Origin: an uncultured bacterium
Lineage (GTDB): Bacteria; DYJV01
NCBI GenBank assembly: GCA_964543655.1
Contig: CAZIZE010000033.1
Span: 1-37,426 of the forward strand
Direction: 5' to 3'
DNA length: 37,426 nucleotides
Position numbers and translations under genes: made by a program. Position 1 is the stretch's first letter. Each line of letters starts with the position of its first letter. The notes under the pieces were generated by a model that was not told the DNA's origin, ran no database searches, and was given only the letters and a program-made list of their open reading frames with translations. Of the stretch, positions 6,881-37,418 are shown piece after piece.

Positions 6881-6886
6881 ACTGTA

Positions 6887-6913: not shown

Positions 6914-6961
6914 AAGGCACTATTTAATGAATTTTAATCTAAAGTAGAGGATAATATATAT

Positions 6962-6990
6962 AGCCTTCCGTTTTGCGGAAGGCTTTTTTT
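6962..6990 (+). terminator. Intrinsic terminator (attenuator) in the panB leader
   Basis: AGCCTTCCGT-TTT-GCGGAAGGCT followed by a T-run to 6990, 12 nt before the panB ATG. Confidence 0.85.
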
Positions 6991-7002
6991 ATGGGAGAAA
7001 AT

Positions 7003-11033: not shown

Positions 11034-11050
11034 TTTATCCTCCTTTTATT

Positions 11051-12235: not shown

Positions 12236-12266
12236 TTTTTCCTCCTTATATTTTCTTGAAAATTTA

Positions 12267-14681: not shown

Positions 14682-14698
14682 TTTTTCCTCCTTTAAAT

Positions 14699-14716
14699 TG
14701 ATTGATTAATCATTCA
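14699..14716 (-). promoter_or_regulatory. FadR(TetR)-type operator upstream of fadN
   Basis: Minus strand TGAATGATTAATCAATCA is near-palindromic and one mismatch from the B. subtilis FadR box TGAATGANTANTCATTCA. Confidence 0.8.
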
Positions 14717-14734
14717 ATATTGTTCAAAAAAAAA

Positions 14735-15325: not shown

Positions 15326-15326
15326 T

Positions 15327-17084
15327 TTATTCCTCGTATAATTTTTCTAATTTATCTTTGTATTTATCTGTAATTATTTTTCTTTTAAGTTTTAATGTTG
15401 GAGTTATTTCTCCATCTTCCATTGAAAACTCTTTATCAAGCAAAACAAATTTTTTGATTTTTTCAAATCTTGCAAGAGGCTTGCTCCTCTTTTCAATTCT
15501 GTGCATTATTAGCCTTATAACTTTTTCATTTTCAACCATTTCTTTATTTGATTTAAAACTTAAATTCCTCTCTTTTGCCCACTGTTCAATTGCTTCAAAA
15601 TTGGGCACTATTAATGCTGAAAGAAATTTTTTACCATCACCATAAACCATTACCTCAGTAATAAAAGGATCTTCTTTTAAAATATTTTCAATTGGCTGAG
15701 GCGCTATATTTTTGCCACCAGAGGTAACAAGCAAATCTTTCTTCCTATCAGTAATTTTCAAATATCCTTCTTCATCAAGCACACCTATATCTCCAGTGCA
15801 GAAGTATCCATTTTTAAAAGCAAGTTTGTTTTCATCAGGTTTGTTATGGTAACCCTGTGTAACATTTGGCCCTTTAACAAGAATCTCTCCATCTTCTGCT
15901 ATTTTAACATCAACATCTTTTAATACTTTTCCAACAGTACCTATCTTATTTTTCTCAGGAAGATTTACTGATATAACAGGAGAAGTTTCTGTCAACCCAT
16001 ATCCTTCTAACAGATGAATACCAATACCATTGTAAAAAAGCCCAACTTCATAAGGGAGTTTTGCTCCACCAGAGATCATTATTTTCATTCTACCACCAAA
16101 AACATCTCTAAGCTTTGAGTAAACTTTTTTTTCAAAAAAATTGTACTTTAATTTATCAAAAAATGAAAATGGTTTATTGTAAGCTCTATGCTCTGCAAAT
16201 TTGGATGCAGTCTCTTTTGCACTGTAAAACATCTTTTGCTTGAGCTTAGATGCTTCTCTAACCTTCTCTATAATTCTTTCAAGAATTTTCTCATACACTC
16301 TTGGAACACTAACAAACATTGTAGGTTTAATCTCTTTTAAATTTTCTCCAATTGTATTTATATCTTCAGCATAAGCAATTATAGAGCCATAATACATTGG
16401 CACAAAATGACCAACACATCTTTCAAGAACGTGGCTTAAAGGTAGATGAGATAAAAATATATCGTCTGATGATACTTTTATAATTTCACCACCCCTTATA
16501 ATATTATGGAGAAAGTTATTATGTGTAAGGTAAACACCCTTTGGTGGACCTGTGGTGCCAGAAGTATATATTAATGTAACCAAGTCATCTAATTTAATTT
16601 CATTGACTATATTTTTAATTTTTTCATAAAAAACTTCTTGAGATTTAACAATTTTATTAAAAGTAACAATATCTTTCTCAATATCCTCTAAAACAACTAT
16701 ATGCTCCAAAAAGTCAAAATCTTTTACTTTTTCATACTGCTCTTCATTTTCTACAAAAATTATCTTCACATCTGCATCTTTAAGAATATATTCAATCTGA
16801 CCTGATGTGCTGGTTGGATAAATTGGAACAGTTACATTGCCAGCTGATAAAATACCAAAATCACAACAAAGCCACTCAAGCCTATTGTGAGAAAGTAATG
16901 CTACTTTGCTTTTTAAAGGTAAGCCTTTTGAAATTAAAAAGGAAGCTATTTTAAATACGTACAATTTAATCTCTTCCCACGAAAAATCTTTGTAAACTCC
17001 TTCGACCTTTGATTTTAGAAAAACTTTCTCAGGTGTGGACTCTGCATTTTTTATAAATTTTGCTGCTAAATTTATTTTTTCCAT
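15327..17084 (-). CDS. Long-chain fatty acid--CoA ligase (AMP-binding)
   Basis: YTSGTTGPPKG, EGYGLTETSP, TGDIG, DRKKDL..TSGGKNIAPQPIE, TPTLKLKR. Confidence 0.92.
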   Translation of the reverse strand: MEKINLAAKFIKNAESTPEKVFLKSKVEGVYKDFSWEEIKLYVFKIASFLISKGLPLKSKVALLSHNRLEWLCCDFGILSAGNVTVPIYPTSTSGQIEYILKDADVKIIFVENEEQYEKVKDFDFLEHIVVLEDIEKDIVTFNKIVKSQEVFYEKIKNIVNEIKLDDLVTLIYTSGTTGPPKGVYLTHNNFLHNIIRGGEIIKVSSDDIFLSHLPLSHVLERCVGHFVPMYYGSIIAYAEDINTIGENLKEIKPTMFVSVPRVYEKILERIIEKVREASKLKQKMFYSAKETASKFAEHRAYNKPFSFFDKLKYNFFEKKVYSKLRDVFGGRMKIMISGGAKLPYEVGLFYNGIGIHLLEGYGLTETSPVISVNLPEKNKIGTVGKVLKDVDVKIAEDGEILVKGPNVTQGYHNKPDENKLAFKNGYFCTGDIGVLDEEGYLKITDRKKDLLVTSGGKNIAPQPIENILKEDPFITEVMVYGDGKKFLSALIVPNFEAIEQWAKERNLSFKSNKEMVENEKVIRLIMHRIEKRSKPLARFEKIKKFVLLDKEFSMEDGEITPTLKLKRKIITDKYKDKLEKLYEE

Positions 17085-23067: not shown

Positions 23068-23435
23068 TAATTGGAGGTAGTTTGAAGCCTGAAATTCGGA
23101 GTTAGAATTAAGATATTTTTTTAATATAAACAGGTTATAAATTTTTCTATTGTTTCATTTCGTTAGAATATTCCCAAAAAGTTATTCAGATTAAAATGAA
23201 CAATCCTTTATACAAGTTCACAGTTTAAGGTCCATACCTCAAAGTTGAAAGATAATTAATAACAATAACTTAAGAATATTGAGGATATAATTTAAAGTAG
23301 AAAGTTGTATTATAACCATATTTAGTTTTACTCACCTATCTATTGTATAATTTTTTACCATTTCGTAATATAACGTTTAAAATTTCATAAAAATTTTTCT
23401 TGCATTTTTTTTTATTTTTTATTATTTGCTCACTC

Positions 23436-23637
23436 GCAGGTTCAGGGAAGAGGGTGAGAATCCCACACTGTCCCCGCAGCCGTGAGTCAGTCCGGTAATT
23501 TGCCGGAAGATTCTGATTCTTTGTCACTGATATGTTTGGTGTATGCTGGCATATTGGGAAGGCAAAGATCTTAATCAGAATCTGGTAACCTGACAAGTCG
23601 GAAGACCTACCTGCATATTATCTCTCGGGGATTAGAG
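23436..23637 (+). ncRNA. Cobalamin riboswitch
   Basis: P1 GCAGGT(23436)/ACCTGC(23614); AGGGAA; GGGTGAGAATCCC T-loop; ACTGTCCCCGCAGCCGTGA; GTCACTG...GGGAAGGC; B12 box AAGTCGGAAGACCT; downstream CTCT-CGGGGA-TT-AGAG hairpin whose loop is complementary to TCCCCG. Confidence 0.93.
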
Positions 23638-23705
23638 GCTGAGTGGTATATATGATTCTTTTACCTTTTCAAACCATTCACCTCTTATCCCAAAAATTTT
23701 TTTTT
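23628..23705 (+). terminator. Riboswitch expression-platform hairpin, terminator-like
   Basis: GGGATTAGAGG-C-TGAGTGGT pairs with ACCATTCA-CCTCTTATCCC, followed by AAAAA and a 9-T run. Confidence 0.5.
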
Positions 23706-23789
23706 GAAAATTAATTTGGAAGGAGGTGGTAATCGTTAATATTTGAGAAATTACTATTTTTAAAAAGAAAAAATTGAGGAGGTAAAGAA

Positions 23790-26378
23790 GTGTATAAAAA
23801 ACTTCTAATATTTTTAACATTACTATTTTGCTCAAATTATTTATTAGCAGAAACCCCTAAAATTATTACTAATTTATCTGCTAATAATTCAAAAATAAGT
23901 GGGGTATTAAAAATTTCTGGTATTTCAGAATCAGATTTAACTACAAATTGTTATTTTCAAAATGGAGACTCTTTAGGATTATGGATTGCTGCTATAGGAG
24001 AAAATTATTCCCAAATTGGCTCTATTTCAAATTGTAACTATTCTAATAATGAGCTGAATTGTAATATTGAAATTGATAATTTACAAAATGATGAATATAA
24101 AATATGGATAGGCCCTGGAATATTTTCAAAAAATTGTCCATTACCAGATGGATATGTAAAGGATGGATATGTCGATAATCAATCAACTATAAATAGCGCC
24201 TCCATTTATGAAGTTGCAAGCTTAGAACCAGTTTTCTCAGATATAACTGTAAATAATAATATAATTGCAGGAAAAATTGCTATAAACAATATTTCTGAAC
24301 ACCAGCTTTCAACATGTTTTTATCAATCTGATGGTTCAATTGGTTTATGGGTTGCGGCCATAGGATTGCAGAATTCAAAAATTGGCAATATATCAAATTG
24401 TTCATACAATAATGGCAAACTAATATGTAGTTTTGAAATAGATAACCTTAATAATGATAGGTACAGAATTTGGATTGGCCCAGGAATCTATTCAGAAAAT
24501 AATTGTTTAATTCCAAATGGCTATATTAGCAAAGAACATGTTGATGTTTCAATTAATAATGCTGATGTTTATACTGTAAGCAATGTTGAATCAGAAAATA
24601 CTTTAAGTGAAATAAATGTTAATAATAATGAGATAACTGGTAAAATTAATTTTAAAAATATCTCAGAAACCCAGCTTGCAAACTGCTTTTATCAATCAGA
24701 TGGCACCATTGGATTATGGGTAGCAGCAATTGGCACTCAAAGTTCACAAATAGGTCATATTTCAAATTGCAGTTTTAGCAATGGAAATCTCTCTTGTGAT
24801 TTTGCTATTGAAAATCTTAACAATGATACATACAAAATATGGTTAGGCCCCGGAATTTTCTGTGAAAATAATTGCTTATTGCCAACTGGTTATCTAAAAG
24901 ATGGTAATTTTGATGCAAATTTTAATGAAGCATCTACTTATAAAGTTAGTAATACAGCATCTACTGGAGGTGGAGGAGCTATTATTACTTCCACACCAAT
25001 AGAAAATCCAGAAGAAAAAGAATACACAACACAAATTAATATAGATGAAGTTATTAGTGATGATAATATAGCTGCTAATACAGAGAATTATATTGAAATA
25101 AACAGTGAGAAATTGGGTAAAGGAGTTGAATTTAATCTTTCAACTTCTGAAAAGCCTGTTTTATTTAAAGATAATAAAATTCCTGAAAATTTTAAAATAG
25201 TAGGTGGAGAAATTTTAGGCGGTCTCAAAGGTGATGTGGATATTAATAATTTGGAGAAAAGCTCTGATGTAGAACAAAAACTTAAAGAAGTTCTACCTGA
25301 AGTAAAAGATGTTACTATAAAACCATTAAATGGGAAGATTGAAGTTGAAAATGTTATCCTTCAAAATGTAAAAATAGATTCAGATAATATAGAAAATATA
25401 GATTTTGGCAAAGGTGTAATCTTTGATGAGAATACAATTAAGAATATTACTAATAGTGTAAATAAAGATATTTCCATAAAGCAAGTTGTTCCTGATGTAA
25501 AAATCACTACTAACAATATTAATGTAAACATGAATGTACCTTCTCCATCTTTTCCTATTATGGTAGATAAAAGTGGCAATATGGTAACGCCAGCTGATAT
25601 TGTCACAGATACTTTGAAAAGTGCTGGAATTAAAGATATCAAATCAGATGTGACAAACACAGGAGCAATTCAATTTGATATTAAAGGTGTTAAATTTTAT
25701 ACAATTATTAAAGATATTCTGCTTGGTGATGCAAATAATTTTACAGCAGATAATAATGCTAAGTTGTTGAGAAATGGCGAATTTTTAATAAAACAAAATG
25801 GTATAAACATTATATTATCTCCAGCTCCATATAATATTAATGAAATTGACTCGTTATTTGCATCCATTAAAGATTCTCTACCTTCTTTTTCAGCCAACAT
25901 AGATGAAGATGGTATATTAACAGCTTCATGGAAAGATAATAGTGGAACAACTATTAAAATAGCCTCCTGTTTCAGTGGCATGATTTCACAATCTGAAAAT
26001 AAACCATCACAACTTACATTATCTGTTAGTTTAAAAAATAGAGTTGCTGGAATCACAGCTACTTATACAGATGGAAGTGCAGAATTTTGGGCACCATATT
26101 TTATAGGAATGAAATATATAGAGACCTGGCTGGATAAATATATTAATAATGGTTCTCTTCAAAATTGGCAGTTTGATAGATATACCGGCATTCTTACTTT
26201 AACAACAAATGATGGAAAAGAAATAAAGGTTTCTCCTGACTTAAAATTTAGAGCTTTAACCATAGAAGAGCAGGAAAAATTAAACAAATCTTCTGATAAT
26301 GTTACCATTGAAAATATTAATAATAACTGGTTTTTAATAACACCAGAAGGTACTCAACAATTTAAAATAATTGAATAA
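23790..26378 (+). CDS. Secreted hypothetical protein with three tandem ~122-aa Cys-containing repeats and an unrecognised C-terminal region
   Basis: GTG start with GGAGG; Sec signal peptide (MYKKLLIFLTLLFCSNYLLA); GLW(I/V)AAIG and IW(I/L)GPGI each occur three times. Confidence 0.85.
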   Translation: MYKKLLIFLTLLFCSNYLLAETPKIITNLSANNSKISGVLKISGISESDLTTNCYFQNGDSLGLWIAAIGENYSQIGSISNCNYSNNELNCNIEIDNLQNDEYKIWIGPGIFSKNCPLPDGYVKDGYVDNQSTINSASIYEVASLEPVFSDITVNNNIIAGKIAINNISEHQLSTCFYQSDGSIGLWVAAIGLQNSKIGNISNCSYNNGKLICSFEIDNLNNDRYRIWIGPGIYSENNCLIPNGYISKEHVDVSINNADVYTVSNVESENTLSEINVNNNEITGKINFKNISETQLANCFYQSDGTIGLWVAAIGTQSSQIGHISNCSFSNGNLSCDFAIENLNNDTYKIWLGPGIFCENNCLLPTGYLKDGNFDANFNEASTYKVSNTASTGGGGAIITSTPIENPEEKEYTTQINIDEVISDDNIAANTENYIEINSEKLGKGVEFNLSTSEKPVLFKDNKIPENFKIVGGEILGGLKGDVDINNLEKSSDVEQKLKEVLPEVKDVTIKPLNGKIEVENVILQNVKIDSDNIENIDFGKGVIFDENTIKNITNSVNKDISIKQVVPDVKITTNNINVNMNVPSPSFPIMVDKSGNMVTPADIVTDTLKSAGIKDIKSDVTNTGAIQFDIKGVKFYTIIKDILLGDANNFTADNNAKLLRNGEFLIKQNGINIILSPAPYNINEIDSLFASIKDSLPSFSANIDEDGILTASWKDNSGTTIKIASCFSGMISQSENKPSQLTLSVSLKNRVAGITATYTDGSAEFWAPYFIGMKYIETWLDKYINNGSLQNWQFDRYTGILTLTTNDGKEIKVSPDLKFRALTIEEQEKLNKSSDNVTIENINNNWFLITPEGTQQFKIIE
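23865..24953 (+). repeat. Intragenic triplication (~366-369 nt period)
   Basis: GLW at aa 63, 185 and 308; four Cys at equivalent positions in each unit. Confidence 0.9.
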
Positions 26379-26396
26379 AATAAAGGAGGTAATATC

Positions 26397-27878
26397 ATGG
26401 TAAAAAAATTCTATTTATTTATAATTGCTTGTTTATTGATTATAGGTAGTATTTCTTTAAAAGCTGAAACTTTGAATATTAAATCAGGATGGAATGTATT
26501 TCAATCAGACCTAAATATTGTTTCAGTTAATCAATTTGCAAAAGATGGCATTGTAGGTATTGTTAAATTAAAACCTGGTAAAAATTATGAGCTCACAAAA
26601 GATAATTGGTATGTATGGAGTGACAATAATACGTTGCTTAAAGCTTTAACTGATGCTGATTGGACAACTTTTGAAGGAATATATAAAAATAACCTTTATG
26701 CTGTATTTTCTACAAAATCCATAAACCTTGATATATCAAGCTCTTGTCAGATTCCTTACTTACCAATAGCTACAGAATCATATAATTATCAAACAGGAAT
26801 GTATTCAATAGTTGACCTAAACAATCTAACAGCGTATAAACAGTTAAATACATATTCTCTTGGTGGAGATATAAGAGCTTATGTTTATGGTGATTATATT
26901 TTTGTTGTTGATGCACCTAATAGTGGTAATACTTCCACATGGTATGTATATAAAATAGACCAAACATCAACAACACTTGACCAGACAAAAGCTAAAACAA
27001 CTATTGCCAATTATACTATTAATAGGCAGAATCCACACAGTATTGCATTTTCAAGCGATTCCAAAGCATACCTTACAACTTATTTTGATAATTCAATACT
27101 TATTTTTAATCCCCAAAATGGAAATGAGCTTGGCACAATTGATTTAACTCCATATTTATATACTGCTGACAATGGTACTCAAAATAAATATATTGGTGCA
27201 GAAGCAATGTTAATGACAGGTGACAAATTGTATGTATCACTTGATAGAGCGAGAACATATTATGGTGATGCCACTCCTGATAAAAGCATGATTCTTGTTA
27301 TAGATACAACAAATGATACTGTTACTAAATCTATTAAAGTTCCATATTCTCCAAGATCTCTACAAATTTTTGGAAATTATCTATACTTCTTATCTATGGG
27401 CGACTACTCCAACCCAATTGGCAAAATTTATAGAATAAATCTTTCAGATTATTCATTAGATAGCAATTTTGTAATCTCACCAATTGTTTCAGGTTCATCT
27501 ACTGAATACATAAAAAATTTTGTTATCACACCAGAAGGAGAATTGTTTTTGGTAACAAATGCTGGATGGGGACAGCCTTACAATGTATATATGATCGACA
27601 ATGTAGAAAAATATAATGATTCCACAAAAGCTGGATTAAATACCACAGCAATCTATTCTGCTTCTGGCTATGTACCTGATTTAGATTTTGTATGTGGTTA
27701 TCTTGTAATTGCTGACAGAGGAAAAGCAGATATAGACTATAAAACTAAAGAGGTAAAAGAAATTTTGCAGCAGGGAGCACTTGTTTTTATTGATACTAAT
27801 GGAAAAGTTGTTAAGAAAATTTTAGATACAGATCTTGGCTACCCTCCTTATAAAATAGGTTCTGATTACAATTATTAA
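26397..27878 (+). CDS. Secreted YncE/BtuG-like beta-propeller protein
   Basis: Signal peptide; blades such as NPHSIAFSSDSKAYLT, GTIDL, GDKLYVSL, ILVIDTTNDTVTKSIKV; lies directly before a TonB-dependent receptor in a B12-riboswitch operon. Confidence 0.65.
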   Translation: MVKKFYLFIIACLLIIGSISLKAETLNIKSGWNVFQSDLNIVSVNQFAKDGIVGIVKLKPGKNYELTKDNWYVWSDNNTLLKALTDADWTTFEGIYKNNLYAVFSTKSINLDISSSCQIPYLPIATESYNYQTGMYSIVDLNNLTAYKQLNTYSLGGDIRAYVYGDYIFVVDAPNSGNTSTWYVYKIDQTSTTLDQTKAKTTIANYTINRQNPHSIAFSSDSKAYLTTYFDNSILIFNPQNGNELGTIDLTPYLYTADNGTQNKYIGAEAMLMTGDKLYVSLDRARTYYGDATPDKSMILVIDTTNDTVTKSIKVPYSPRSLQIFGNYLYFLSMGDYSNPIGKIYRINLSDYSLDSNFVISPIVSGSSTEYIKNFVITPEGELFLVTNAGWGQPYNVYMIDNVEKYNDSTKAGLNTTAIYSASGYVPDLDFVCGYLVIADRGKADIDYKTKEVKEILQQGALVFIDTNGKVVKKILDTDLGYPPYKIGSDYNY

Positions 27879-27884
27879 AAATTT

Positions 27885-27905
27885 TCTCCGGGTTTATCCC
27901 GGAGA
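27885..27905 (+). terminator. Intra-operon stem-loop (partial terminator or mRNA stabiliser)
   Basis: TCTCCGGG-tttat-CCCGGAGA followed by GAACTTTT. Confidence 0.55.
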
Positions 27906-27926
27906 GAACTTTTAAAAAGGAAGAAA

Positions 27927-29939
27927 ATGATGCATTATAGAAATTGGTTTATAATTATAATAATTTTTTTAACTCTATATTATACAAGCATATTTTCTGC
28001 AAATTTTTATATTCTTCCAGATATAATAGTGCAGTCATCTAAATATTCTCAATTAGAAAAAAGTCCTTACACAAAAACAGTAATTAATGTTGAAAAGCAT
28101 AAATTTGAAGAGAAAACCCTTGGTGAGCTTCTTGAAACAGCGCCTGGAGTTCATGTAACATCTCTTGCTGGACGAGGTTCATATACTACTATATCTATAA
28201 GGGGAAGCACTTCATCTCAGGTGCTTGTGTATATTGATGGCATACTTGTAAATAATGGTGGAGAGAGCAGTGTTGATCTTAGCACAATTCCAGTGGAAGA
28301 TATAAAAAAAATAGAAATTTACAGAGGAAATATTCCTCCTAAATTTGGTAGAGCTGGTATTGGAGGCGTTATTAATATTATAACAAAAAAGCGCTCTTCC
28401 ATGTTTAATAGTAGGCTTTCATATGGTAGTTTTAAATTTTATCAAATGGAAAACAATATTAATTATAACTTTAAAAATTTCAACAATTTCCTTAATATAT
28501 CTTTTGAAGGAAGTACAGAAGATTATCCTTATTATAATGATGACAACACTCCTTTTAATAAAACAGATGATTATCACGCACACAGGAGAAACAATTATTA
28601 TAACCAGAAAAATATTTTGTATAATTTGAGAAAAATTTTTAATACCTCTATTTTAAATATTACTTATAGACATTTCTACAAACACAAAGAATTACCTGGA
28701 GCTGCTCCAGCAAGAGATACTGAAAGTAGCGATACAGATGCATCATTAAATAGAATCAGAAATCAAGTTGAACTTTCATATTCATATAATTACAAAAATG
28801 CTATTTTTGGCATTCAAGGATACATTGGCAGAGAAAGAAAATATTTTAACAATCCTCATTATGCTCTTGGAATGTATAGTTTATTGAAATCAGCCTATTA
28901 TACACACAAAAATGGTTTTAATTTTTCATTTGATTTATCAAAAAATAATCTTTTAAATTTTAAATTTTATTTAACAAAAAATTTTGAAAATTTAAAAACA
29001 GATTTTACACCTAATACTTCTTTTTTAATTGATTCAAAATACAACAGGAAAGAAACTGATCTTACTATTTCAAATAAATTTTTCTTATTCAAAAAAAGTT
29101 TGATAATAGAGCCAGTGTTTAGAAAAAATATAATTACTGATACCAATTATAACAGTAATGTAAAATCACATTTTAATAAAAACTCTAAGTCAGCAGGAGT
29201 TAAATATTTTTTACCTTTTATAACATCTTTTAATCCATATATAAAATTTAATTATGGAAAGTTTTTCAGATTTCCTAATTTTTACGAAAAATTTGGTGAT
29301 GGAGCCACTCTCCTTTCAAGTGAAGGATTAAAACCTGAAAATAGTATTAACAGAGATTATGGTTTTGGTTTTAATTACTATTTCAATAAATACCCTTTTT
29401 CTATTTCAGGAGATTTTACCTATTTTAATAATTATGTGAAAGATCTTATTGAATTTGTAATGGTAAATGAAAGATACTCTAAATATAAAAATATTGAAAA
29501 TGCTAAAATAAAGGGATATGAAGTATTATTAAATTTCAATTTTAAAATAATCAATATAATAATGAATTACTCCAAACTTGATGCAAAATCAGGACAATTT
29601 GGCTATAAAAAAAACAAACCTTTACCAAATAGGCCAGAAAATTCAGCATACATGAGAATACAGCTTAATCTAAAAAAATTTTCTTACTGGATTGATGGTA
29701 ATAAAGTAGGCAAAAACTATTTTGACGATGGTGGTTATTACTATTACAATGATTATACAATATTTAATACTGGTTTTATCTACTCATACACCAAACATTT
29801 GAAATTTAGCATTACTGTTAAAAATTTTACCAACAATCAAGATATGTATGCTTATGCTGCTGGATACAATGTTCCGAAAACACCATACTATCCACTAAAA
29901 GGTAGGAGTTTCTATTTATCTATTAATTATAATTGGTAA
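27927..29939 (+). CDS. TonB-dependent outer-membrane receptor, probably corrinoid (BtuB-like)
   Basis: TonB-box-like LPDIIVQS; plug motifs PGV, SIRGS, VLVYIDG, IEIYRG, GGVINIITK; LKPE; C-terminal GRSFYLSINYNW. Confidence 0.9.
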   Translation: MMHYRNWFIIIIIFLTLYYTSIFSANFYILPDIIVQSSKYSQLEKSPYTKTVINVEKHKFEEKTLGELLETAPGVHVTSLAGRGSYTTISIRGSTSSQVLVYIDGILVNNGGESSVDLSTIPVEDIKKIEIYRGNIPPKFGRAGIGGVINIITKKRSSMFNSRLSYGSFKFYQMENNINYNFKNFNNFLNISFEGSTEDYPYYNDDNTPFNKTDDYHAHRRNNYYNQKNILYNLRKIFNTSILNITYRHFYKHKELPGAAPARDTESSDTDASLNRIRNQVELSYSYNYKNAIFGIQGYIGRERKYFNNPHYALGMYSLLKSAYYTHKNGFNFSFDLSKNNLLNFKFYLTKNFENLKTDFTPNTSFLIDSKYNRKETDLTISNKFFLFKKSLIIEPVFRKNIITDTNYNSNVKSHFNKNSKSAGVKYFLPFITSFNPYIKFNYGKFFRFPNFYEKFGDGATLLSSEGLKPENSINRDYGFGFNYYFNKYPFSISGDFTYFNNYVKDLIEFVMVNERYSKYKNIENAKIKGYEVLLNFNFKIINIIMNYSKLDAKSGQFGYKKNKPLPNRPENSAYMRIQLNLKKFSYWIDGNKVGKNYFDDGGYYYYNDYTIFNTGFIYSYTKHLKFSITVKNFTNNQDMYAYAAGYNVPKTPYYPLKGRSFYLSINYNW

Positions 29940-29959
29940 ATTATAAAGAGAGGTGTAAA

Positions 29960-31840
29960 ATGAAAAAAATATTAATTATCTTTTTTTTAATGATACTTTT
30001 TACAAAATTTCTATATGCTGACTACAACAGAATAGTTTCCCTAAATCCATCTATAACCCAGATGCTGTTTGCACTTGGTGAAGGAAACAAAGTGGTAGGG
30101 GTAACCTATCATGATACTGTGCCATTTGAAGCTACAAAAAAAACAATAGTAGGAGGTTTTTTTGCTCCTGACATAAAAAGAATTTCTAAGCTGCATCCTG
30201 ACCTAATATTCTGTGCAAAATTTCATAAGAATGTAATTAATCATTTTGAAAATAAAGCAAGAATTATTATTTTAAATGCTCATTCTATTGAAGATATTTT
30301 CAAAAACATTCAATTTCTTGGAAAATTTTTCAAAAAACAGAAAAAAGCAGAAGAAATCATCACTAAAATAAAAAAAGAGATAGCTCTTATTCAGGAGAAA
30401 TTAAAATTTATACCTATAAATAAGAGAAAAAGGGTTATAAGAATTATGGGTAGAGGATATGTGCCTGGAAAGAATTCTTTTCAAATTGATGTGATTAAAA
30501 GAGCAGGTGGAATTCCTTTTATTCCAAAGGAAAAAGGTGATATTTATAAAATTTCATTAAAAGAATGGAAAAAATTTAATCCTGATATAATTTATGTTTG
30601 TGGAAATGACAAAAATTATCTTCATAATTTTTTTCAACAAAAAGGCTGGAGAGATGTTAATGCTGTAAAATACAATAGAATTTTTACTTTTCCATGTGTT
30701 TTAACATGCAGACCTTCAATTTACACAGGTTATTTTATTCAATGGTTAAGTGCCACCATATATGGAGACGAATTTTTTAAAGAAAAAAATATTATTACAA
30801 AGCATAAAATTTTAAACAAAAAGCCTCTTAAAAACAATTTTAATTTTGTTAAGTCAATCAATCTTGTATCTGGAATTATAAACGATTTTCCACATAAAAC
30901 ACTTTTAATACAATTTAACAACCCTGAAAAAATTCTTTCAACACTTGATGGCTTTAGAAAAGTAAAGTTTGTTGGAAATCATTATCTTGTTCCTCCTCGC
31001 TGGAATGAGGGGCACAAAAATTTTAAAAAATTTAAACAGGAAGTTGCAACAGCTCTTGGCATTAACTTAAGAAATTCTTCTCTTTTATATACTGGTGCTA
31101 ATATGAAAAATCTTGCTTACAATTTTGCTAAATTTAAAGATATTAAATTGGAAGTCTTTGCAACAGCTGGTGTTCGCTCAAATGCAATGAGATGTGGTTA
31201 TGAAAAGGGTATATTTATTAATCATGGTACAATTAATATAATTGTTTTAACAAATTTAAAATTAAGTAATAGAGCTATGGCAAGAACTCTTATAACTGTT
31301 ACAGAGGGGAAAACAGAGGCTCTTCAAGAACTTGATATTAGAAGCTCCTATAATCCCATAAAGTATCAAGCAACTGGTACCGGAACAGATAATATAATTA
31401 TTGTATCTGGAAATGGAAGGAAAAAAGATATAGCAGGAGGGCATTCAAAATTTGCCCAAATACTTGCAAATCTTGTAAGGATTTCTGTGAAACAGGCAAT
31501 TTTAAAACAGAATAGAATTATTGCAAATAGAAATATTTTCCAAAGGCTTGAGGAAAGAAATATAAGACTCTTTAATTTATCGAAAATATGTAGTAATTAC
31601 AATAAGAAAAATTTAAAAGAAAATATGTTAAAATTGCAAAATATACTTTTAAACAAAAAATATGCAGATTATTTAAAGACATGTTTTGCTCTTTCAGATA
31701 GTTATAATTATCATTTAATAAATAGTTACAAAATATTAAATATATCAAAACATATGAAAAATATTAAGGAAACTAACTATCCACCTGTAATTGATTATTG
31801 CATTGATAATATTTTAAACTTGGTGATTTATGGAGATTAA
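29960..31840 (+). CDS. Exported BtuF-type substrate-binding protein fused to a CbiZ adenosylcobinamide amidohydrolase domain
   Basis: Signal peptide from ATG 29960; RIVSLNPSITQMLFALG..VVGVT (helical-backbone SBP); CbiZ motifs TGANM, ATAGV..NA, GTINII, TEGK..AL, ATGTGTD. Confidence 0.85.
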   Translation: MKKILIIFFLMILFTKFLYADYNRIVSLNPSITQMLFALGEGNKVVGVTYHDTVPFEATKKTIVGGFFAPDIKRISKLHPDLIFCAKFHKNVINHFENKARIIILNAHSIEDIFKNIQFLGKFFKKQKKAEEIITKIKKEIALIQEKLKFIPINKRKRVIRIMGRGYVPGKNSFQIDVIKRAGGIPFIPKEKGDIYKISLKEWKKFNPDIIYVCGNDKNYLHNFFQQKGWRDVNAVKYNRIFTFPCVLTCRPSIYTGYFIQWLSATIYGDEFFKEKNIITKHKILNKKPLKNNFNFVKSINLVSGIINDFPHKTLLIQFNNPEKILSTLDGFRKVKFVGNHYLVPPRWNEGHKNFKKFKQEVATALGINLRNSSLLYTGANMKNLAYNFAKFKDIKLEVFATAGVRSNAMRCGYEKGIFINHGTINIIVLTNLKLSNRAMARTLITVTEGKTEALQELDIRSSYNPIKYQATGTGTDNIIIVSGNGRKKDIAGGHSKFAQILANLVRISVKQAILKQNRIIANRNIFQRLEERNIRLFNLSKICSNYNKKNLKENMLKLQNILLNKKYADYLKTCFALSDSYNYHLINSYKILNISKHMKNIKETNYPPVIDYCIDNILNLVIYGD

Positions 31841-32552
31841 ATCATTAATACTTGGAATTATTTTTACTCTAAGTATATTTGCCATTAAATCTGGGATAGG
31901 ATTGTATTATATTTTTTTTAAAAATGATAAAAGAAAATTTTTTATAATATTATCTACATTTTTATCTTATTTCATTCTTTTCTCTTTAAGTTATTTTATT
32001 CTTGTAAAAATAAATATTTTAAATTACTTCTCATATTTTGAAGGTTTTTTGAAAACAGGAATGTTGCTCCATTTTATACTTGCAATTGGAATGCTATGGT
32101 GGGGAATAAGTGTGCTTACCAAATTTGAAGAAAACTCAAAAGCATATTTAATGTTAATATTTCCCTGTCCTTTATGCTCAATTGTTATTTTTCTTGCAAT
32201 ATCTTTTTTAATTAAATTTATTGGAAAATACAATTTTTCTTATAATATAATGTTCTTTTTGGGTTTTATTTTATTGCAACTTATTACAATATCAGCATTA
32301 TTTTTATTTTCAAAAATATTAAAAGTCAAATATATTAATGATCTTCTTGGTTTTTCTTTAATAGGTATTGGTTGCTATTTTTTAATAACTTACTGCTTTG
32401 CACCTGCTTTTTCTCAGGTAAATAGAATCTACAGATTTGCCAGTTATTCTAAAATTCATTTTACATTTGACAAGAACTGGTTAATCTTATTTTTTTTTGC
32501 AATTACAATAATTTTAATGGGATTTTATGTAAATAAAAGGAGATTAAAATGA
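31830..32552 (+). CDS. Multi-pass membrane protein, DUF2162-like putative transporter
   Basis: About 7 hydrophobic segments; FAIKSGIG, GMLLH and PCPLC motifs; sits in the usual DUF2162-MotA-DUF2149-CobN neighbourhood. Confidence 0.7.
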   Translation: MEIKSLILGIIFTLSIFAIKSGIGLYYIFFKNDKRKFFIILSTFLSYFILFSLSYFILVKINILNYFSYFEGFLKTGMLLHFILAIGMLWWGISVLTKFEENSKAYLMLIFPCPLCSIVIFLAISFLIKFIGKYNFSYNIMFFLGFILLQLITISALFLFSKILKVKYINDLLGFSLIGIGCYFLITYCFAPAFSQVNRIYRFASYSKIHFTFDKNWLILFFFAITIILMGFYVNKRRLK

Positions 32553-33190
32553 ACTTCAGTGCACTATTGCAAACAATTATCTACATTATTTCATCATCTC
32601 TTCTAATCCCTGTTATGTTTTTACTTGTTTTTCTGTTACTATGGATGCTTTTCATATCAGGGATGTTGCTTTCTGAATGGATTGAAAGAAAAAAATTAAA
32701 AAAAATAGTAAATATAAACCTTTTACTTGATGGAGTTGCAGAAAAAAAGAAAATACCAGAAGAATATTTTGAATATTTTTCACTTTATGTAAAATCATAT
32801 TTTAAAAGATTAAATGAACTTATTTCATTAAAAGATAAACTTTTTGAAATTAAAGTGGAAAATCTTCTTCAGGAAAAAGAATTAAATATGTTAAAGGAAC
32901 TTGATAAAATAAAAATGGTAATTAGAATTGGTCCCAGCCTTGGGTTAATGGGGACATTAATTCCTATGGGTACAGGTCTTGCCTCTCTTGGCCAGGGTGA
33001 TATTACAAAACTTTCCTCAAGCCTAATTATAGCATTTACAACTACCGTTGTTGGCTTGGGCTTAGGAGTAGTTGCATTCTTTTATGGGTCAATTAAAGAG
33101 AGATGGATTCAAGAAGATATGAAAAATATGGAGGTTTTTACAGAAACCATTGCAAAATTAAATGGAAATTATTTAGGAGAAAGTAAATGA
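32549..33190 (+). CDS. MotA/TolQ/ExbB proton-channel family protein
   Basis: IGPSLGLMGTLIPM...LIIAFTTTVVGL. Confidence 0.88.
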   Translation: MNFSALLQTIIYIISSSLLIPVMFLLVFLLLWMLFISGMLLSEWIERKKLKKIVNINLLLDGVAEKKKIPEEYFEYFSLYVKSYFKRLNELISLKDKLFEIKVENLLQEKELNMLKELDKIKMVIRIGPSLGLMGTLIPMGTGLASLGQGDITKLSSSLIIAFTTTVVGLGLGVVAFFYGSIKERWIQEDMKNMEVFTETIAKLNGNYLGESK

Positions 33191-33525
33191 AATTTATAAA
33201 AAAAAGAAGATTTTCTGAAAAAATTCAGGCATCAGAAGATCCCCTTTCTGGTGTTGCAAACCTTTTTGATGTAGGGCTTGTGTTCATTGTAAGCTTATTA
33301 CTAACAGTTATGAGTGTTTATCATATTACAGATTTTTTCAGTAACAAATCTGAAATTACTATAATGAAAAAGGATAGTAATGGTAAACTTGAAATTATTA
33401 TGAAAAAAGGGAAAATTATTAAAGCTTATAAAGCTACTGAAAAGATTGGAGAAGGTGAAGGTGAAAAACTTGGCACTGCTTATAGATTAAAAAATGGCAA
33501 AATTATTTATATCCCTGAAAAATGA
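33187..33525 (+). CDS. DUF2149 single-pass membrane protein (ExbD/MotB-like partner)
   Basis: EDPLSGVANLFDVGLVF transmembrane segment with an intramembrane Asp; GEGEKLGTAYRL..GKIIYIPE. Confidence 0.82.
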   Translation: MKFIKKRRFSEKIQASEDPLSGVANLFDVGLVFIVSLLLTVMSVYHITDFFSNKSEITIMKKDSNGKLEIIMKKGKIIKAYKATEKIGEGEGEKLGTAYRLKNGKIIYIPEK

Positions 33526-36500
33526 AAAAATTTTTTTATATTTTATTTATAGTTTTTTATTTTTGTAATTTTGCAAATGCAAAATCATACAAAAAAATTT
33601 TGTTTCTAATTGGTGAGCCATATAGCGGAGTTCTCTCAAAAGCAATAAAAAATATATCAATACAGAATCCAGATAAAAATATATCTCAAAATGTTACCTT
33701 TGTTGTTAGAAAAAATTTCTCTCAAGTTAATACGAAATTTTTATCAAAATACTCTATATTTCTTATAGACACAATGTATCCCTCTACAAAAAGAATAATA
33801 AAAATTATTCCATCTAACAAAAAAATTTTCTCTTTAAGAGCGCCTAATGGTGGTTATTCAACAGAATTTAATAATAAATTAATCTTTGATAAAAATATCT
33901 TAGAATATTTTTCATTTCCTGAATTACAAAACAGTGAAAATCTTATAAAATATGTAATGAACTTAGAAAATAAAACAAAATTTAAAATAGCAAAACCTAC
34001 TCTTCTAAAACAAGTTTTTATAGCACATCCTGATAGTAAAAAGCTATTTACAGATTACAAAGATTACTTAAATTGGTACAAATCAAGTCATCATTTTAAA
34101 AAAAATGGTTTCTGGGTGGGAATTACATATTACAGACCTATGGTGAATAATAGAATGATTACTTCTTTAGTAAAACAGTTTGAAAAGGCTGGGATTAATG
34201 TAATTGTTCTTTACAGTTTTCCAGATTATCTTGCAATAAAAAAATTTCTTTTGCCTCATAAAGTTGATTTATTAATAGGAATATCTTTCAAATTTTCTGC
34301 GTCCCTTGATAAAAAGGGTAAAACTACTCTTTCAAAATTAAACGTTCCAGTGTATAATGGAATATCATTATTTCAAACATCAGAAACAGTTTGGGCTTTA
34401 TCTAATAAAGGTCTAACACCATTTGAAGTTTCATTTCAAGTTGCCCTTCCTGAGCTTGCAGGTATTATAGAACCTACTGTAATAGCATCAAAGGAAAGGA
34501 TATTTGATCCTTACACTCAAAAAGATATATTTGTGAGTCAAACAATTAATTACCAAGTTAAATGGTTAATAAAAAGAATTAAAGCTATGAGGAATCTTCA
34601 AATAAAACCGAACAGAGATAAAAAAATCGCTATATTTTATTACAATCATCACCCAGGAAAACAGAATATAGGTGCAAGCTATTTAAATGTTATGAAATCG
34701 CTGTCAGTTATTTTAAACTCATTAAGAAAACATGGTTACAACATACCTGCAAAGGTGAAACTTAACTATAATACATTAAAATCAGAAATGCTCCTTTCTG
34801 GTAGAAATGTTGGTAATTATGCTCCTGGTGAAATTGATAAACTTGTAAGCAGTGGAAAAGTTGTATTATTGCCAATAAAAAAATATAAAAAATGGATAAA
34901 AAATGTTCCTACAAATTTCATAAATCCTGTTTTAAAAAAATGGGGAAAGCCTGAAGATAGTAAAATTATGGTTTACAAAAATAATTTTATTATTCCAATG
35001 GTAAAAATTAGTAAAAATATTATAATATTACCACAACCATCAAGAGGATGGGGGCAATCACCACTAAAAATGTATCATGATGTAACTTTGCCTCCTCATC
35101 ATCAATATATTGCTGTTTATTTGTGGTTAAAAAAGATTTTCAAAGCAGATGCAATTATTAACCTTGGAACACATGGTACTCAAGAATGGCTACCAGGCAA
35201 GCAGGTTGGAACTATTTACTGGGATTATGGTGATTATTTGGTACAGGATATTCCTGTTCTCTATCCTTATGTAATGGATGACATTGGAGAAGCAATTCAG
35301 GCAAAGAGAAGAGGAAGAGGTATAATTATTAGCCATCTTACTCCTGTTATGAAAAAAGGTAACCTTTTTGGAAAATATCTTAAACTTGCAGATAAAATAC
35401 AGCAATACAGCATTGCTCTTACAAAGGATAAAGAGCTTGCAAGACAAAAATTCTTAGAGATTAAAGAGCTTACAAAAGCAACAGGAATTAATAGAGATCT
35501 TAGATTAAGAAAAATCACACCTGATGCTGTTGAAAAAATAGAACATTATCTAATTGATTTAAAAGAGCAAACCTTGCCTTATGGGCTTCACACCTTTGGT
35601 AAAATTAGCAATAAAGGTGCAAAAGATTTTGCTTCATTACTTGCAAAAACTTATCCTAATTACAAAAAAAATTCATCTAAATATTTTTATAATATTTTAA
35701 AACAGAGCGCTAAAAATGAAATAAATAATCTATTAAAAGGACTAAATGGAGAATATATCTCCCCGGGCCATGGTAATGACCCTCTCCGATCTCCAGATGC
35801 GTTACCTGCAGGTAGAAATCTTTATGCATTTGATTCAAGCAAAATTCCTTCAAGAGAAGCTTACAACCTTGGTAAAAAACTTGTAAATGAGAGTATTTTT
35901 AAATTTAGAAAAGAACATAACAATCATTATCCCAAAAAGGTTGAAATTATTTTATGGAGTGTTGAAACTTGTAGAGATGAAGGCATAGCTGTTAGCCAGG
36001 CAATGTATTATATGGGTATAAAACCGGTATGGGATTCAAGAGGGAGAGTAAAAGGAGTTGCTGTTATACCAGGAAATATTTTAAAAAGGCCACGAATAGA
36101 TGTTGTTATGCAGCCATCTGGTTTATTTAGAGATATGTTTCCAAATTTAATTAAACTTCTTGATAAAGCTATTAATTTAGCTGTAAAACAGAGAGATATT
36201 GAAAACTTTTTAAAAGAGAACTCAGAAACATTATATAAAACATTAATTAAAAAAGGTTATAATAGGAAAGAAGCAAAAATTTTATCTAACATAAGAATAT
36301 TTGGTGAACCGCCAGGTGCATATGGAACAATGGTAGCAAAATTAACTGGAAGTTCTGGATTATGGGACAACAGCTCTGAAATTGCTGCTGTTTATATTAA
36401 CAGACTTTCCTATGGCTATTCAACTAAATATTGGGGGAAGCCTTTAAAAAAATTGTTTAAAGAGAATTTAAAAAATGTAGATACTGTTATTCATACTTTA

Positions 36501-37418
36501 TCAAGTAATCTATATGGGACAATGGATAATGATGATATGTTTCAATATGCTGGTGGAGCAGTGCTTGCAATTAAATCTATTACAGGAAAAACTCCAGAAC
36601 TTTACATTTCAAGAAGTGAAAATTCTCAAAAAGTCTATGTTGAAGATATTAATAAAACTATTGGCAAAGAATTTAGAATGAGATACACTAATCCCGCATG
36701 GATAAAAGCAATGAAGAAAGAAGGTTATGCAGGTGCAAAAGAAATGAGTAATTTTGTTGATTATATGTGGGGTTGGCAGGTAACTGTTCCAGATTCAATT
36801 GGAAAGAGAAAATGGAAAGAAACATTTGATGTTTATGTAAAAGATAAATACAATCTTGGTTTAAAAAAATTTTTTGAAAAAGAAAATCCATGGGCATATC
36901 AATCTATTACTGCAAGAATGCTTGAAGCTATTAGAAAAGGATATTGGAAGGCAGATAAAAAAATATTGCAAAAATTATCCGTTGAATACGCTCTAAATGT
37001 TATAAACAGAGGAGTTGCGTGTTGTGATCATACCTGTAATAATCCTGCTTTAAATCAAATGGTAGTTAACATAATTTCCCTTCCAGGTGTAATGAGTCCT
37101 GAACTTGTGCAAAAATTTAAAGCAATAATCACAAAAGCTATGGGTAAATCATTAAAAAAATCATTAAAAGATCGTGAAAAATTGCTTAAAAAAATATCAA
37201 ACATAGTTAAAAATATGAAAAGTAAAAATATAAACGGTAAAACAGAGACTAAAAAAGTAGTAAAAGGTTATGAATTAAAAGAAGAAACTAAGAAAAAAGA
37301 AGATTCTCAAGCAACAAGTTCAGGAATTCAGTGGTATTTAATGCTCTTTGTATTTGCAATAATAGTGGTAATATTTTCAGGAATAATTAAAATTCAAATA
37401 AAGTCAAAAAGAAGTTAA
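33522..37418 (+). CDS. CobN/ChlH-family chelatase-like protein with N-terminal signal peptide and C-terminal membrane anchor
   Basis: KKIAIFYYN, PPHHQYIAVYLWL, GTHGTQEWLPGK, AKRRG, LPAGRNLY, RPRIDVV, SGLFRD, DNDD, NPAWI..M..EGY.GA; AxA signal (NFANA); hydrophobic tail WYLMLFVFAIIVVIFSGII followed by basic residues. Confidence 0.9.
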   Translation: MKKFFYILFIVFYFCNFANAKSYKKILFLIGEPYSGVLSKAIKNISIQNPDKNISQNVTFVVRKNFSQVNTKFLSKYSIFLIDTMYPSTKRIIKIIPSNKKIFSLRAPNGGYSTEFNNKLIFDKNILEYFSFPELQNSENLIKYVMNLENKTKFKIAKPTLLKQVFIAHPDSKKLFTDYKDYLNWYKSSHHFKKNGFWVGITYYRPMVNNRMITSLVKQFEKAGINVIVLYSFPDYLAIKKFLLPHKVDLLIGISFKFSASLDKKGKTTLSKLNVPVYNGISLFQTSETVWALSNKGLTPFEVSFQVALPELAGIIEPTVIASKERIFDPYTQKDIFVSQTINYQVKWLIKRIKAMRNLQIKPNRDKKIAIFYYNHHPGKQNIGASYLNVMKSLSVILNSLRKHGYNIPAKVKLNYNTLKSEMLLSGRNVGNYAPGEIDKLVSSGKVVLLPIKKYKKWIKNVPTNFINPVLKKWGKPEDSKIMVYKNNFIIPMVKISKNIIILPQPSRGWGQSPLKMYHDVTLPPHHQYIAVYLWLKKIFKADAIINLGTHGTQEWLPGKQVGTIYWDYGDYLVQDIPVLYPYVMDDIGEAIQAKRRGRGIIISHLTPVMKKGNLFGKYLKLADKIQQYSIALTKDKELARQKFLEIKELTKATGINRDLRLRKITPDAVEKIEHYLIDLKEQTLPYGLHTFGKISNKGAKDFASLLAKTYPNYKKNSSKYFYNILKQSAKNEINNLLKGLNGEYISPGHGNDPLRSPDALPAGRNLYAFDSSKIPSREAYNLGKKLVNESIFKFRKEHNNHYPKKVEIILWSVETCRDEGIAVSQAMYYMGIKPVWDSRGRVKGVAVIPGNILKRPRIDVVMQPSGLFRDMFPNLIKLLDKAINLAVKQRDIENFLKENSETLYKTLIKKGYNRKEAKILSNIRIFGEPPGAYGTMVAKLTGSSGLWDNSSEIAAVYINRLSYGYSTKYWGKPLKKLFKENLKNVDTVIHTLSSNLYGTMDNDDMFQYAGGAVLAIKSITGKTPELYISRSENSQKVYVEDINKTIGKEFRMRYTNPAWIKAMKKEGYAGAKEMSNFVDYMWGWQVTVPDSIGKRKWKETFDVYVKDKYNLGLKKFFEKENPWAYQSITARMLEAIRKGYWKADKKILQKLSVEYALNVINRGVACCDHTCNNPALNQMVVNIISLPGVMSPELVQKFKAIITKAMGKSLKKSLKDREKLLKKISNIVKNMKSKNINGKTETKKVVKGYELKEETKKKEDSQATSSGIQWYLMLFVFAIIVVIFSGIIKIQIKSKRS

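Follow-up and report, generated by a model that had tools for sequence, protein, structure and literature searches.

We analyzed a locus in the 3′ part of a 37,426-nucleotide (nt) stretch of DNA from an uncultured bacterium (GTDB lineage Bacteria; DYJV01; GenBank assembly GCA_964543655.1, contig CAZIZE010000033.1), hereafter called the window. Behind a cobalamin riboswitch, this locus encodes an exported protein in which a BtuF-like domain is fused to a CbiZ domain, and a BtuS-type CobN-like protein. Comparison with related genomes showed that a conserved functional link between the exported CbiZ fusion and the BtuS-type CobN-like protein, together with MotA-like, DUF2149 and DUF2162 membrane proteins, is well supported. 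We tentatively propose, at a little short of even confidence, that the locus is an operon, repressed by B12, through which corrinoids are scavenged and dismantled, and a non-Bacteroidota variant of the BtuS/hmu-like loci. Within this proposal, capture of corrinoids, their import and the clipping of their nucleotide loop in the periplasm are supported by homology, predicted fold and recurring synteny, and by analogy the CobN-like protein may extract the metal from the corrinoid. The locus comprises the following elements.

23354..23383, + strand: promoter-like site TTTACC-18-TAAAAT, from a consensus scan (9 of 12 positions)
23421..23628, + strand: cobalamin riboswitch aptamer (Rfam RF00174)
23629..23789, + strand: expression platform, from the sequence and its minimum-free-energy fold
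23790..26378, + strand: P1, exported orphan repeat protein of 862 amino acids (aa), family-less in Pfam and NCBIfam
26397..27878, + strand: P2, BtuG-like beta-propeller with a signal peptide and an extra N-terminal beta domain, from AlphaFold2, Foldseek and profile comparison
27927..29939, + strand: TonB-dependent receptor with a BtuB-like plug (Pfam Plug and TonB_dep_Rec_b-barrel)
29960..31840 (alternative TTG start at 29933), + strand: exported BtuF-CbiZ fusion with a C-terminal extension of ~110 aa (Pfam)
31830..32552, + strand: DUF2162 inner-membrane protein with seven hydrophobic segments (Pfam PF09930, E 1.1e-27)
32549..33190, + strand: MotA/ExbB-family proton-channel protein (Pfam PF01618, E 2.3e-11)
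33187..33525, + strand: DUF2149 single-pass membrane protein (Pfam PF09919, E 1e-31)
33522..37418, + strand: CobN-like protein, BtuS-type, 1298 aa (Pfam CobN-Mg_chel, E 9.3e-300)

A preliminary description, made from the sequence of the window, had reported a riboswitch followed by eight co-oriented and tightly packed genes, and this was confirmed by Rfam, the map of open reading frames (ORFs) and Pfam. The riboswitch at the head of the operon stood, whereas its start did not, as Rfam begins the element 15 nt earlier. Gaps of 18 nt and 48 nt separate P1 from P2 and P2 from the receptor, respectively. The receptor and the fusion genes are spaced by 20 nt when the ATG at 29960 is taken as the start, or overlap by 7 nt with the TTG at 29933; from the fusion onward, through the CobN-like gene, consecutive genes overlap by 11 nt and then three times by 4 nt. 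Pfam assigned six of the eight proteins, P1 and P2 being without a Pfam or NCBIfam match. Every gene product had also been described as secreted or membrane-bound, which agreed with hydropathy analysis: signal-like N-terminal segments were found in P2, the receptor and the fusion, and a C-terminal hydrophobic segment (residues 1273-1291) in the CobN-like protein. In P1 and the CobN-like protein, the hydrophobic stretch at the N-terminus is short and below the threshold of the script, and was called by eye.

The fusion protein matched Pfam Peripla_BP_2 at residues 34-254 and CbiZ at residues 327-518. Its CbiZ domain (PF01955) scored 153.4 bits against a cutoff of 27 (E 9.6e-45) and covered positions 1-190 of the 191 in the profile; against the NCBIfam BtuF equivalog the protein reached 53.2 bits, below the cutoff of 234. 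No solved CbiZ was present among the PDB matches of the fusion. A near-length search gave 585 relatives at E≤0.001 among 7999 candidates scored, and both Pfam domains were present in 120 of 120 relatives among the matches listed, with the CbiZ motifs strongly conserved throughout the family. We then obtained 536 fusion loci in a scan of species-representative genomes, and the analyses described here use the best 80 of these 536 (individual loci carry L numbers). Most of the kept loci are from metagenome-assembled genomes (MAGs) of Desulfobacterota; L001 and L002, which are ~70% identical to the window, are from unclassified MAGs. Of the 72 fusion ORFs whose 5′ end is complete, 71 have a signal-like N-terminus, and a twin-arginine pattern was seen in only one, indicating that the CbiZ domain is placed outside the cytoplasm. 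The predicted export of this family agrees with the earlier suggestion that the nucleotide loop would be clipped in the periplasm. CbiZ of archaea and Rhodobacter is a cytoplasmic cobinamide amidohydrolase for corrinoid remodelling. The CbiZ domain of the fusion resembles it in its full-length Pfam match, whereas a signal peptide and a BtuF-like domain precede it in the chain, and it is hence predicted to be periplasmic.

To describe the gene neighborhoods, 936 ORFs of the loci and the window were clustered, the cluster representatives were named with Pfam, and gene maps were drawn. Fifty-seven loci were of a BtuCD type, whose typical order is receptor, fusion, a second and ordinary BtuF, FecCD permease, ABC ATPase, ExbB, ExbD and TonB. 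The fusion was considered as the docking protein of BtuCD and rejected, because a separate BtuF-like gene of ~300 aa follows in most BtuCD-type loci, indicating that the fusion is not simply the binding protein of the transporter. In L004, L018 and L021, the fusion gene is followed by genes for a class I/II aminotransferase, CbiB and, in L004 and L018 only, CobQ. These three proteins act in the cytoplasm to restore the nucleotide loop once CbiZ has removed it. As a separate observation, the fusion ORFs of L038, L040, L055, L057, L066 and L073 are ~900-1009 aa long with an FecCD permease gene directly after them and, by length and position, appear to have absorbed a second BtuF-like domain (BtuF-CbiZ-BtuF).

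In the same homologue scan anchored on the fusion, the CobN-type gene group described for the window recurred with the fusion, parts of the DUF2162/MotA-like/DUF2149/CobN-like module being present in 22 of the 80 loci, plus the window. All five module genes, including the fusion, were detected by tblastn in ten loci, while contig ends truncate most of the remaining ones. Typically, an optional receptor gene is followed by DUF2162, MotA-like, DUF2149, fusion and CobN-like genes; in the window, L001 and L002, the fusion stands ahead of the DUF2162/MotA-like/DUF2149 trio. Furthermore, the fusion and CobN-like genes are adjacent in 19 of 21 cases, and the two genes of a pair lie within 40 nt of each other, either way, in 16 of these 19 and overlap in 12, mostly by 4 nt.

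What follows the CobN-like gene in related loci bears on the extent of the system. L064 continues with CbiK-BtuF-FecCD-ABC, L072 with CbiK-BtuF-FecCD-ABC-ExbB-ExbD-TonB, and L059 with ExbB-ExbD-TonB-CbiK. CbiK adjoins the module in L047, L059, L064 and L072 and is mostly without a signal peptide (cytoplasmic-type), which fits a role in cobalt supply. A plain substitution of ExbB-ExbD by the MotA-like/DUF2149 pair was rejected, since L072 and L059 have canonical ExbB-ExbD-TonB in the same run. The preliminary description had called the system entirely extracytoplasmic, with no BtuC/BtuD, TonB, CobS/CobT or corrin-ring enzyme. Within the window this absence stood: Pfam found no FecCD, ABC ATPase, TonB, ExbD, AAA+ chelatase subunit or corrin-ring enzyme among its other 16 ORFs. 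The downstream part of the claim is not judgeable from a window whose 3′ edge lies 8 nt past the CobN-like stop codon, and the impression of an entirely extracytoplasmic system most likely arose from this edge; the importer genes directly after the CobN-like genes of L064 and L072 speak against it. As in these related loci, the importer genes (BtuFCD) probably lie beyond the window end.

Next, we asked which kind of CobN-like protein the window encodes. Among PDB entries it scored highest with HmuS (9d26, 508.6 bits), followed by CobN (9uk9, 383.6 bits) and ChlH (367.1 bits), and it remained below the cutoffs of all nine NCBIfam CobN/BchH models (best, 979.9 bits against 1619). HmuS is a membrane-bound, NADH-dependent heme de-chelatase, and the authors of that work stress that most other clusters of the superfamily are not yet annotatable (PMC12583661; papers given by PMC number are cited here from the available parts of their texts). 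The HmuS-defining features tested here were taken from the same paper. The window protein resembles HmuS in having membrane segments at both ends, namely a signal-like N-terminus and a C-terminal membrane anchor, and in keeping the superfamily histidine in its G-T-H-G loop (NLGTHGT in the window). Similarly, it is encoded, as in the hmu operon, with a receptor, a multi-pass membrane protein, a MotA/ExbB-like protein and DUF2149. A parallel with the Bacteroidetes hmuYRSTUV locus had been drawn before, and the published gene content (HmuY, receptor, CobN-like, hypothetical, MotA/ExbB and DUF2149; PMC10434189) upholds it.

These likenesses raise the possibility that the window protein is a heme or metalloporphyrin de-chelatase like HmuS, which removes heme iron and merely shares an operon with B12 uptake genes. 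HmuS being the top solved match and the gene partners being the same would agree with this, as would the poor growth of a Bacteroides fragilis btuS1 btuS2 double mutant on heme iron and the original prediction of "Metalloporphyrin salvage" for BtuS (both per PMC6460266). However, three HmuS hallmarks are missing, namely a methionine-rich insertion in domain IV, the HGR motif containing His-254, and LSLDHxxEFMGG. HmuS residues ~682-903 are unmatched in the window protein, and an insertion of 65-258 aa after window residue ~717, present in seven of the eight HmuS-motif representatives examined, is absent from it. Opposite His-254 the window protein has Phe in the pairwise alignment; H-G-R is a consensus column in the 19-member HmuS-motif group (PHGR in four of six members shown), whereas the position is variable in the 12 window-clade members shown. 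At the position of LSLDHxxEFMGG the window protein reads TMDNDDMFQYAGG, in which Asp takes the place of His-1209 and Gln that of Glu-1212. As for HmuS Met-79, the head domains could not be aligned to HmuS, and conserved M-G columns lie far downstream. Moreover, the window locus differs from hmuYRSTUV in lacking HmuY, in being under riboswitch control and in having corrinoid-protein partners (BtuG-like and BtuF-CbiZ), and the authors of PMC10100974 set riboswitch-bearing hmu-like operons apart from heme use. We therefore consider a heme de-chelatase improbable here.

The stretch TMDNDDMFQYAGG aligns instead with LLDSDDYYQFEGG of CobN 9uk9 and IADSDDYFQYHGG of CobN 7c6o, and its acidic domain-V motif, D-x-D-D-x-x-Q-x-x-G-G, matches both solved CobNs. 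The window protein thus shares its Pfam family and this motif with CobN of CobNST, while it differs from CobN in being predicted to be exported and anchored, in falling below the NCBIfam cutoffs and in scoring lower than against HmuS; neither CobS/CobT nor ChlI/ChlD is encoded in the window. To place it among its relatives, residues 1-1200 were compared with 1.84 billion representatives, giving 4776 matches at E≤0.001. A tree of 160 sequences, comprising the matches from the top 150 that were 900 aa or longer, the window protein and 16 locus proteins, was made with FastTree and midpoint-rooted. The window protein and all 16 full-length CobN-like proteins of the loci formed one clade, together with nine representatives, and the LSLDH (HmuS-type) sequences formed another. 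Hydrophobic segments were found at both ends in nearly all tree sequences, and the cavity histidine and acidic motif are conserved throughout the window clade.

The membrane partners were then compared. In DUF2162, a PCPxC motif in the fourth hydrophobic segment was present in all 11 members aligned (window, L002, L003, L016, L026, L033, L042, L047, L059, L064 and L072), and a G-M-x-I-H motif is conserved in the third. These motifs suggest that a family known to Pfam only as a "predicted transporter" holds a site for metal or redox chemistry, and DUF2162 was mentioned in no paper that we found. DUF2149 has a hydrophobic segment at residues 26-44 and an NLFD motif that is invariant in 14 of 14 proteins and whose Asp lies in the membrane segment. 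This layout appears ExbD/TolR-like, and the protein is unmatched by the ExbD Pfam model, which matches other genes in the related loci. The MotA-like protein has two hydrophobic segments above threshold and falls into a different cluster from the canonical ExbB proteins encoded in these loci.

True CobN binds loop-less corrin tightly. The CobN-like protein might likewise serve as a periplasmic corrinoid receptor or chaperone that hands the CbiZ product to DUF2162, which would act as an inner-membrane importer, energized by the proton-motive force through the MotA-like/DUF2149 pair, and form a second route beside BtuFCD. The close coupling of the fusion and CobN-like genes and the presence of a seven-segment "predicted transporter" in the module are in line with such a role, and for HmuT a possible part in moving tetrapyrrole over the inner membrane is a speculation of the HmuS authors (PMC10100974, PMC12583661). 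Nevertheless, a second importer would be redundant in L064 and L072, where BtuF-FecCD-ABC lies in the same run; conservation of the cavity histidine and acidic motif through the clade is what is expected of an enzyme; and PCPxC would be unusual in a transporter of a ~1 kDa substrate. This hand-off is, in our estimation, doubtful, though it deserves serious attention.

Cobalt transporters are commonly under B12 riboswitches. Uptake of inorganic cobalt was therefore weighed as another B12-regulated function, in which the receptor would import a cobalt complex, the CobN-like protein would bind periplasmic Co(II), and DUF2162 would be a cobalt permease. Besides the riboswitch, the invariant PCPxC of DUF2162, the acidic DxDD cluster of the CobN-like protein and the CbiK neighbor in four loci would suit this function. 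It nonetheless leaves the BtuG-like protein and the tight coupling to an exported CbiZ, both corrinoid-specific, unexplained, and we give it little credence.

Control by B12, as originally described, is predicted by the full-length riboswitch ahead of the genes. The RF00174 match scored 64.8 bits against a gathering threshold of 31.5 (E 5.9e-14), covered model positions 1-189 of 189 and was the sole Rfam family in the window. The promoter-like site lies ~38 nt 5′ of the riboswitch and is weak evidence alone, because the region as a whole contains 112 sites of this kind against 93 expected. The expression platform contains two tracts rich in C and U that are complementary to a pair of ribosome-binding sequences of the GGAGG type, and also a hairpin followed by a T9 run. 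In the minimum-free-energy fold (z-score −2.39), the tract at ~23657-23671 pairs with the ribosome-binding site before 23790. With candidate hairpins both for sequestering the ribosome-binding site and of terminator type, the platform is compatible with control of transcription or of translation. A consensus terminator scan found three sites against 4.3 expected, none of them intergenic on the + strand within the operon; at this chance level, it neither supports nor contradicts a single transcript.

For the related loci, Rfam at the gathering threshold was run on 25 and found cobalamin riboswitches in L002, L026, L042 (two), L031, L035 and L060. A self-made, non-curated nhmmer profile, built from seven of these riboswitches, also found the window element by sequence only and gave riboswitch-like matches in 50 of the 80 loci, plus the window, but it missed the weak L002 element. 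Association was counted where 300 nt or more of sequence preceded the gene run. A riboswitch-like match preceded the gene run in 39 of 41 BtuCD-type loci, and a riboswitch was present in five of nine CobN-type loci (window, L002, L016 (partial), L026 and L042). The four others are L029, L043, L047 and L059. The module of L047 lies in a corrin-methylase/CbiK run extending to the contig end, and that of L059 begins only 275 nt from the contig end, both with no riboswitch match.

Some of these loci show further peculiarities. In L029, two identical 569-aa DDE transposase (insertion sequence) genes lie in tandem at 4356-7948, just upstream of the MotA-like/fusion/CobN-like module; no riboswitch is left there, and the MotA-like ORF, at 400 aa, is possibly a DUF2162 fusion. 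L043 (region 1859-3834) carries MotA-like, DUF2149, fusion and CobN-like genes without DUF2162, receptor or riboswitch, and its module is preceded by an RpiB-like gene and a gene for a B12-binding radical S-adenosylmethionine protein. The two riboswitches of L042 (2983-3163 and 5036-5252) are on the same strand, 2 kb apart; the first precedes a family-less ORF of 159 aa, with a phage-integrase fragment and two tRNA genes just upstream. In the window, an 86-aa ORF (23336-23596, − strand) runs antisense over the riboswitch and most likely reflects chance in AT-rich sequence.

At the outer membrane, a corrinoid theme is indicated by P2, the second gene product, which had been described as a beta-propeller. 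A search at E≤0.001 gave it a family of 18 proteins, and the related loci hold further homologues. From a 25-row alignment, AlphaFold2 gave a model with a predicted local distance difference test (pLDDT) score of 88.8 and a predicted template-modelling score of 0.84, consisting of a small N-terminal beta domain and a propeller. In Foldseek searches of the PDB with this model, ranks 1-15 were all BtuG1/2/3 chains or the homologous BACUNI_02894 (E 1e-14 to 1e-11; TM-score on the target, 0.68-0.80), and cytochrome cd1 propellers came next (~1e-10). The family profile also matched BtuG chains by sequence (E 2e-8), its top nine matches being BtuG-type chains. As fold and profile both match BtuG, P2 belongs with the BtuG cobamide-binding propellers, which bears out the theme as first described. 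Compared with Bacteroides BtuB-BtuG (PDB 8bmx, 8p97, 8bai), P2 shares the propeller fold and a detectable sequence relationship, and its gene likewise stands beside a riboswitch-controlled TonB-dependent receptor, as do the P2 homologues of L031, L035, L038, L060 and L079. In contrast to Bacteroides BtuG, it has an extra N-terminal domain, its gene precedes that of the receptor, and the lipoprotein cysteine box is lacking; no convincing lipobox was seen by eye in P2 or in those Desulfobacterota homologues whose N-termini were inspected. The BtuJ/H/K/G relay has been reviewed, with CobN and CbiZ unmentioned in the available part of that text (PMC13616437).

The receptor belongs to the general Plug and barrel families and fails the BtuB equivalog cutoffs: its top NCBIfam model was TonB-B12 TIGR01779 (144.3 bits against a cutoff of 599.7), and PRK10641 gave 101.3 against 836. 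Its plug matches that of E. coli BtuB (E 4e-20). Complex prediction for the receptor and the P2 propeller gave a median score of 0.56, against 0.00 for the best of three controls, with at least 73% of contacts in common between runs and a partner pLDDT of at least 77. Of 157 solved complexes, 116 attain the mark used, as do 2 of 215 mismatched pairs; passing scores at or below 0.60 came from only 18 of the 157 solved complexes plus both passing mismatches. The support is weak, and the pass may show likeness only, because BtuB-BtuG complexes are already solved.

P1, the first gene product, contains three Cys-containing repeats of ~120 aa that are 50-61% identical in pairwise global alignments, as expected from its description as a repeat protein, followed by a C-terminal half. 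A near-length protein search found only P1 itself, no PDB sequence matched at E≤1, and Atlas queries gave no usable match. The repeats are invisible to Tandem Repeats Finder at the DNA level, and self-BLAST gave the identity match only. AlphaFold2 without an alignment produced an unusable model (pLDDT 39.4).

Part of this picture is already in print. According to PMC6460266, BtuS proteins, the CobN-like proteins of B12-regulated uptake loci, were proposed by Rodionov et al. in 2003, and BtuS1 and BtuS2 of B. fragilis are predicted to be periplasmic and membrane-anchored. B. fragilis NCTC 9343 further has hmu-like operons with a cobalamin riboswitch and without HmuY, for which a link to cobalamin was suggested (PMC10100974). 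By the definition given in PMC6460266, the window protein is a BtuS, as its gene is CobN-like and lies in a btu-type locus under a B12 element; like B. fragilis BtuS1, it is predicted to be exported and anchored and is encoded in a btu/hmu-like gene run. The window locus differs from BtuS loci, which are known here by description only, in its host, a bacterium of 29% GC with unclassified MAGs and Desulfobacterota as its closest relatives, and in two additional components, the exported BtuF-CbiZ fusion and a BtuG-like propeller that is not a lipoprotein. None of the papers within reach, which did not include the 2003 paper or the supplements of PMC6460266 and PMC12583661, described the family of exported CbiZ fusions, its coupling to CobN-like or BtuS proteins, or the DUF2162 PCPxC motif.

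Taken together, we propose the following course for the dismantling of corrinoids. When cobalamin is scarce, the riboswitch would permit expression of the operon, and P2, perhaps with P1, and the TonB-dependent receptor would bring corrinoids into the periplasm. There, the exported BtuF-CbiZ may bind them and hydrolyze the amide of the aminopropanol-nucleotide loop, giving a cobyric-acid-type corrinoid. The loop-less corrinoid would be passed to the anchored CobN-like protein, whose cavity keeps the superfamily histidine and DxDD, and this protein might be worked by the proton-driven MotA-like/DUF2149 pair, whose genes invariably accompany its own; a proton motor is proposed because CobS/CobT, driven by ATP, would be unavailable beyond the cytoplasm. 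By analogy with HmuS, the most likely chemistry would be release of cobalt(II) from corrinoids, and the membrane-embedded PCPxC of DUF2162 may carry metal or reducing equivalents over the inner membrane. Corrinoids left intact would probably be imported by the BtuFCD gene products encoded past the window end.

In its boldest form, this proposal makes the BtuS-type CobN-like protein the first enzyme known to remove cobalt from the corrin ring: CbiZ would strip the loop, the proton-driven MotA-like/DUF2149 motor, in place of the ATP-driven CobST motor, would drive an anchored chelatase in reverse, DUF2162 would use its PCPxC motif to move the freed cobalt, or the electrons for its reduction, over the inner membrane, and corrinoids would serve as cobalt ore for anaerobes. 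We regard this form as rather unlikely, albeit worth stating.

Several points weigh against dismantling. The preliminary description had the metal exchanged or extracted, and with three HmuS hallmarks missing and a CobN-type acidic motif in their stead, this goes further than the sequence supports. We know of no enzyme that removes cobalt from corrin, and of no demonstrated corrinoid function for BtuS-type proteins, which were proposed in 2003 and noted again in 2023. It also looks wasteful to dismantle a corrinoid that CbiZ has just made salvageable. The CobN-type motif, together with the missing His-1209 and Glu-1212 of HmuS, may mean a different chemistry or binding only, and PCPxC could suit a redox dithiol as well as the passage of a soft metal. 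Four of the nine CobN-type loci counted had no riboswitch. BtuFCD in L064 and L072 and ExbB-ExbD-TonB in L059 and L072 stand alongside the module, indicating that it is an addition to the canonical importer and not its replacement; this coexistence neither proves nor excludes metal chemistry. Lastly, the reported phenotype of the B. fragilis double mutant concerns heme iron, and a corrinoid phenotype is not mentioned in the available passages of PMC6460266.

The rest of the window, whose GC content is even at 26-34% throughout so that the locus is no compositional island, encodes metabolism unrelated to corrinoids in its remaining 16 ORFs. Directly upstream of the riboswitch (20452-23067, + strand) lies a gene for an 871-aa protein of unusual multi-domain layout, with DHH, DHHA1, two CBS domains and a poly(A)-polymerase/CCA-adding head with its RNA-binding region. 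A fatty-acid beta-oxidation cluster (9249-17084, − strand) encodes an acyl-CoA dehydrogenase, a thiolase, a fused 3-hydroxyacyl-CoA dehydrogenase/enoyl-CoA hydratase, a TetR regulator and an AMP-forming ligase. Genes for a molybdopterin oxidoreductase and an aldehyde:ferredoxin oxidoreductase (754-4712, + strand) overlap by 4 nt, and this pair points to an anaerobic lifestyle.

HmuS, the heme-handling cousin of BtuS, was recently shown to be a de-chelatase, and the window locus and its relatives offer a clean non-Bacteroidota setting for the question of what BtuS does. The coupling to CbiZ and the cobaltochelatase-type motif point to a testable substrate, namely loop-less corrinoids such as cobyric acid. 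Two ideas are suggested: corrinoid remodelling can begin in the periplasm, and relatives of class I chelatases outside the cytoplasm may use a proton motor and not ATP. Corrinoids as cobalt ore, if true, would serve anaerobes where free cobalt is scarce, and either of the two ideas, if true, would change the picture of cobamide and cobalt cycling among anaerobes.

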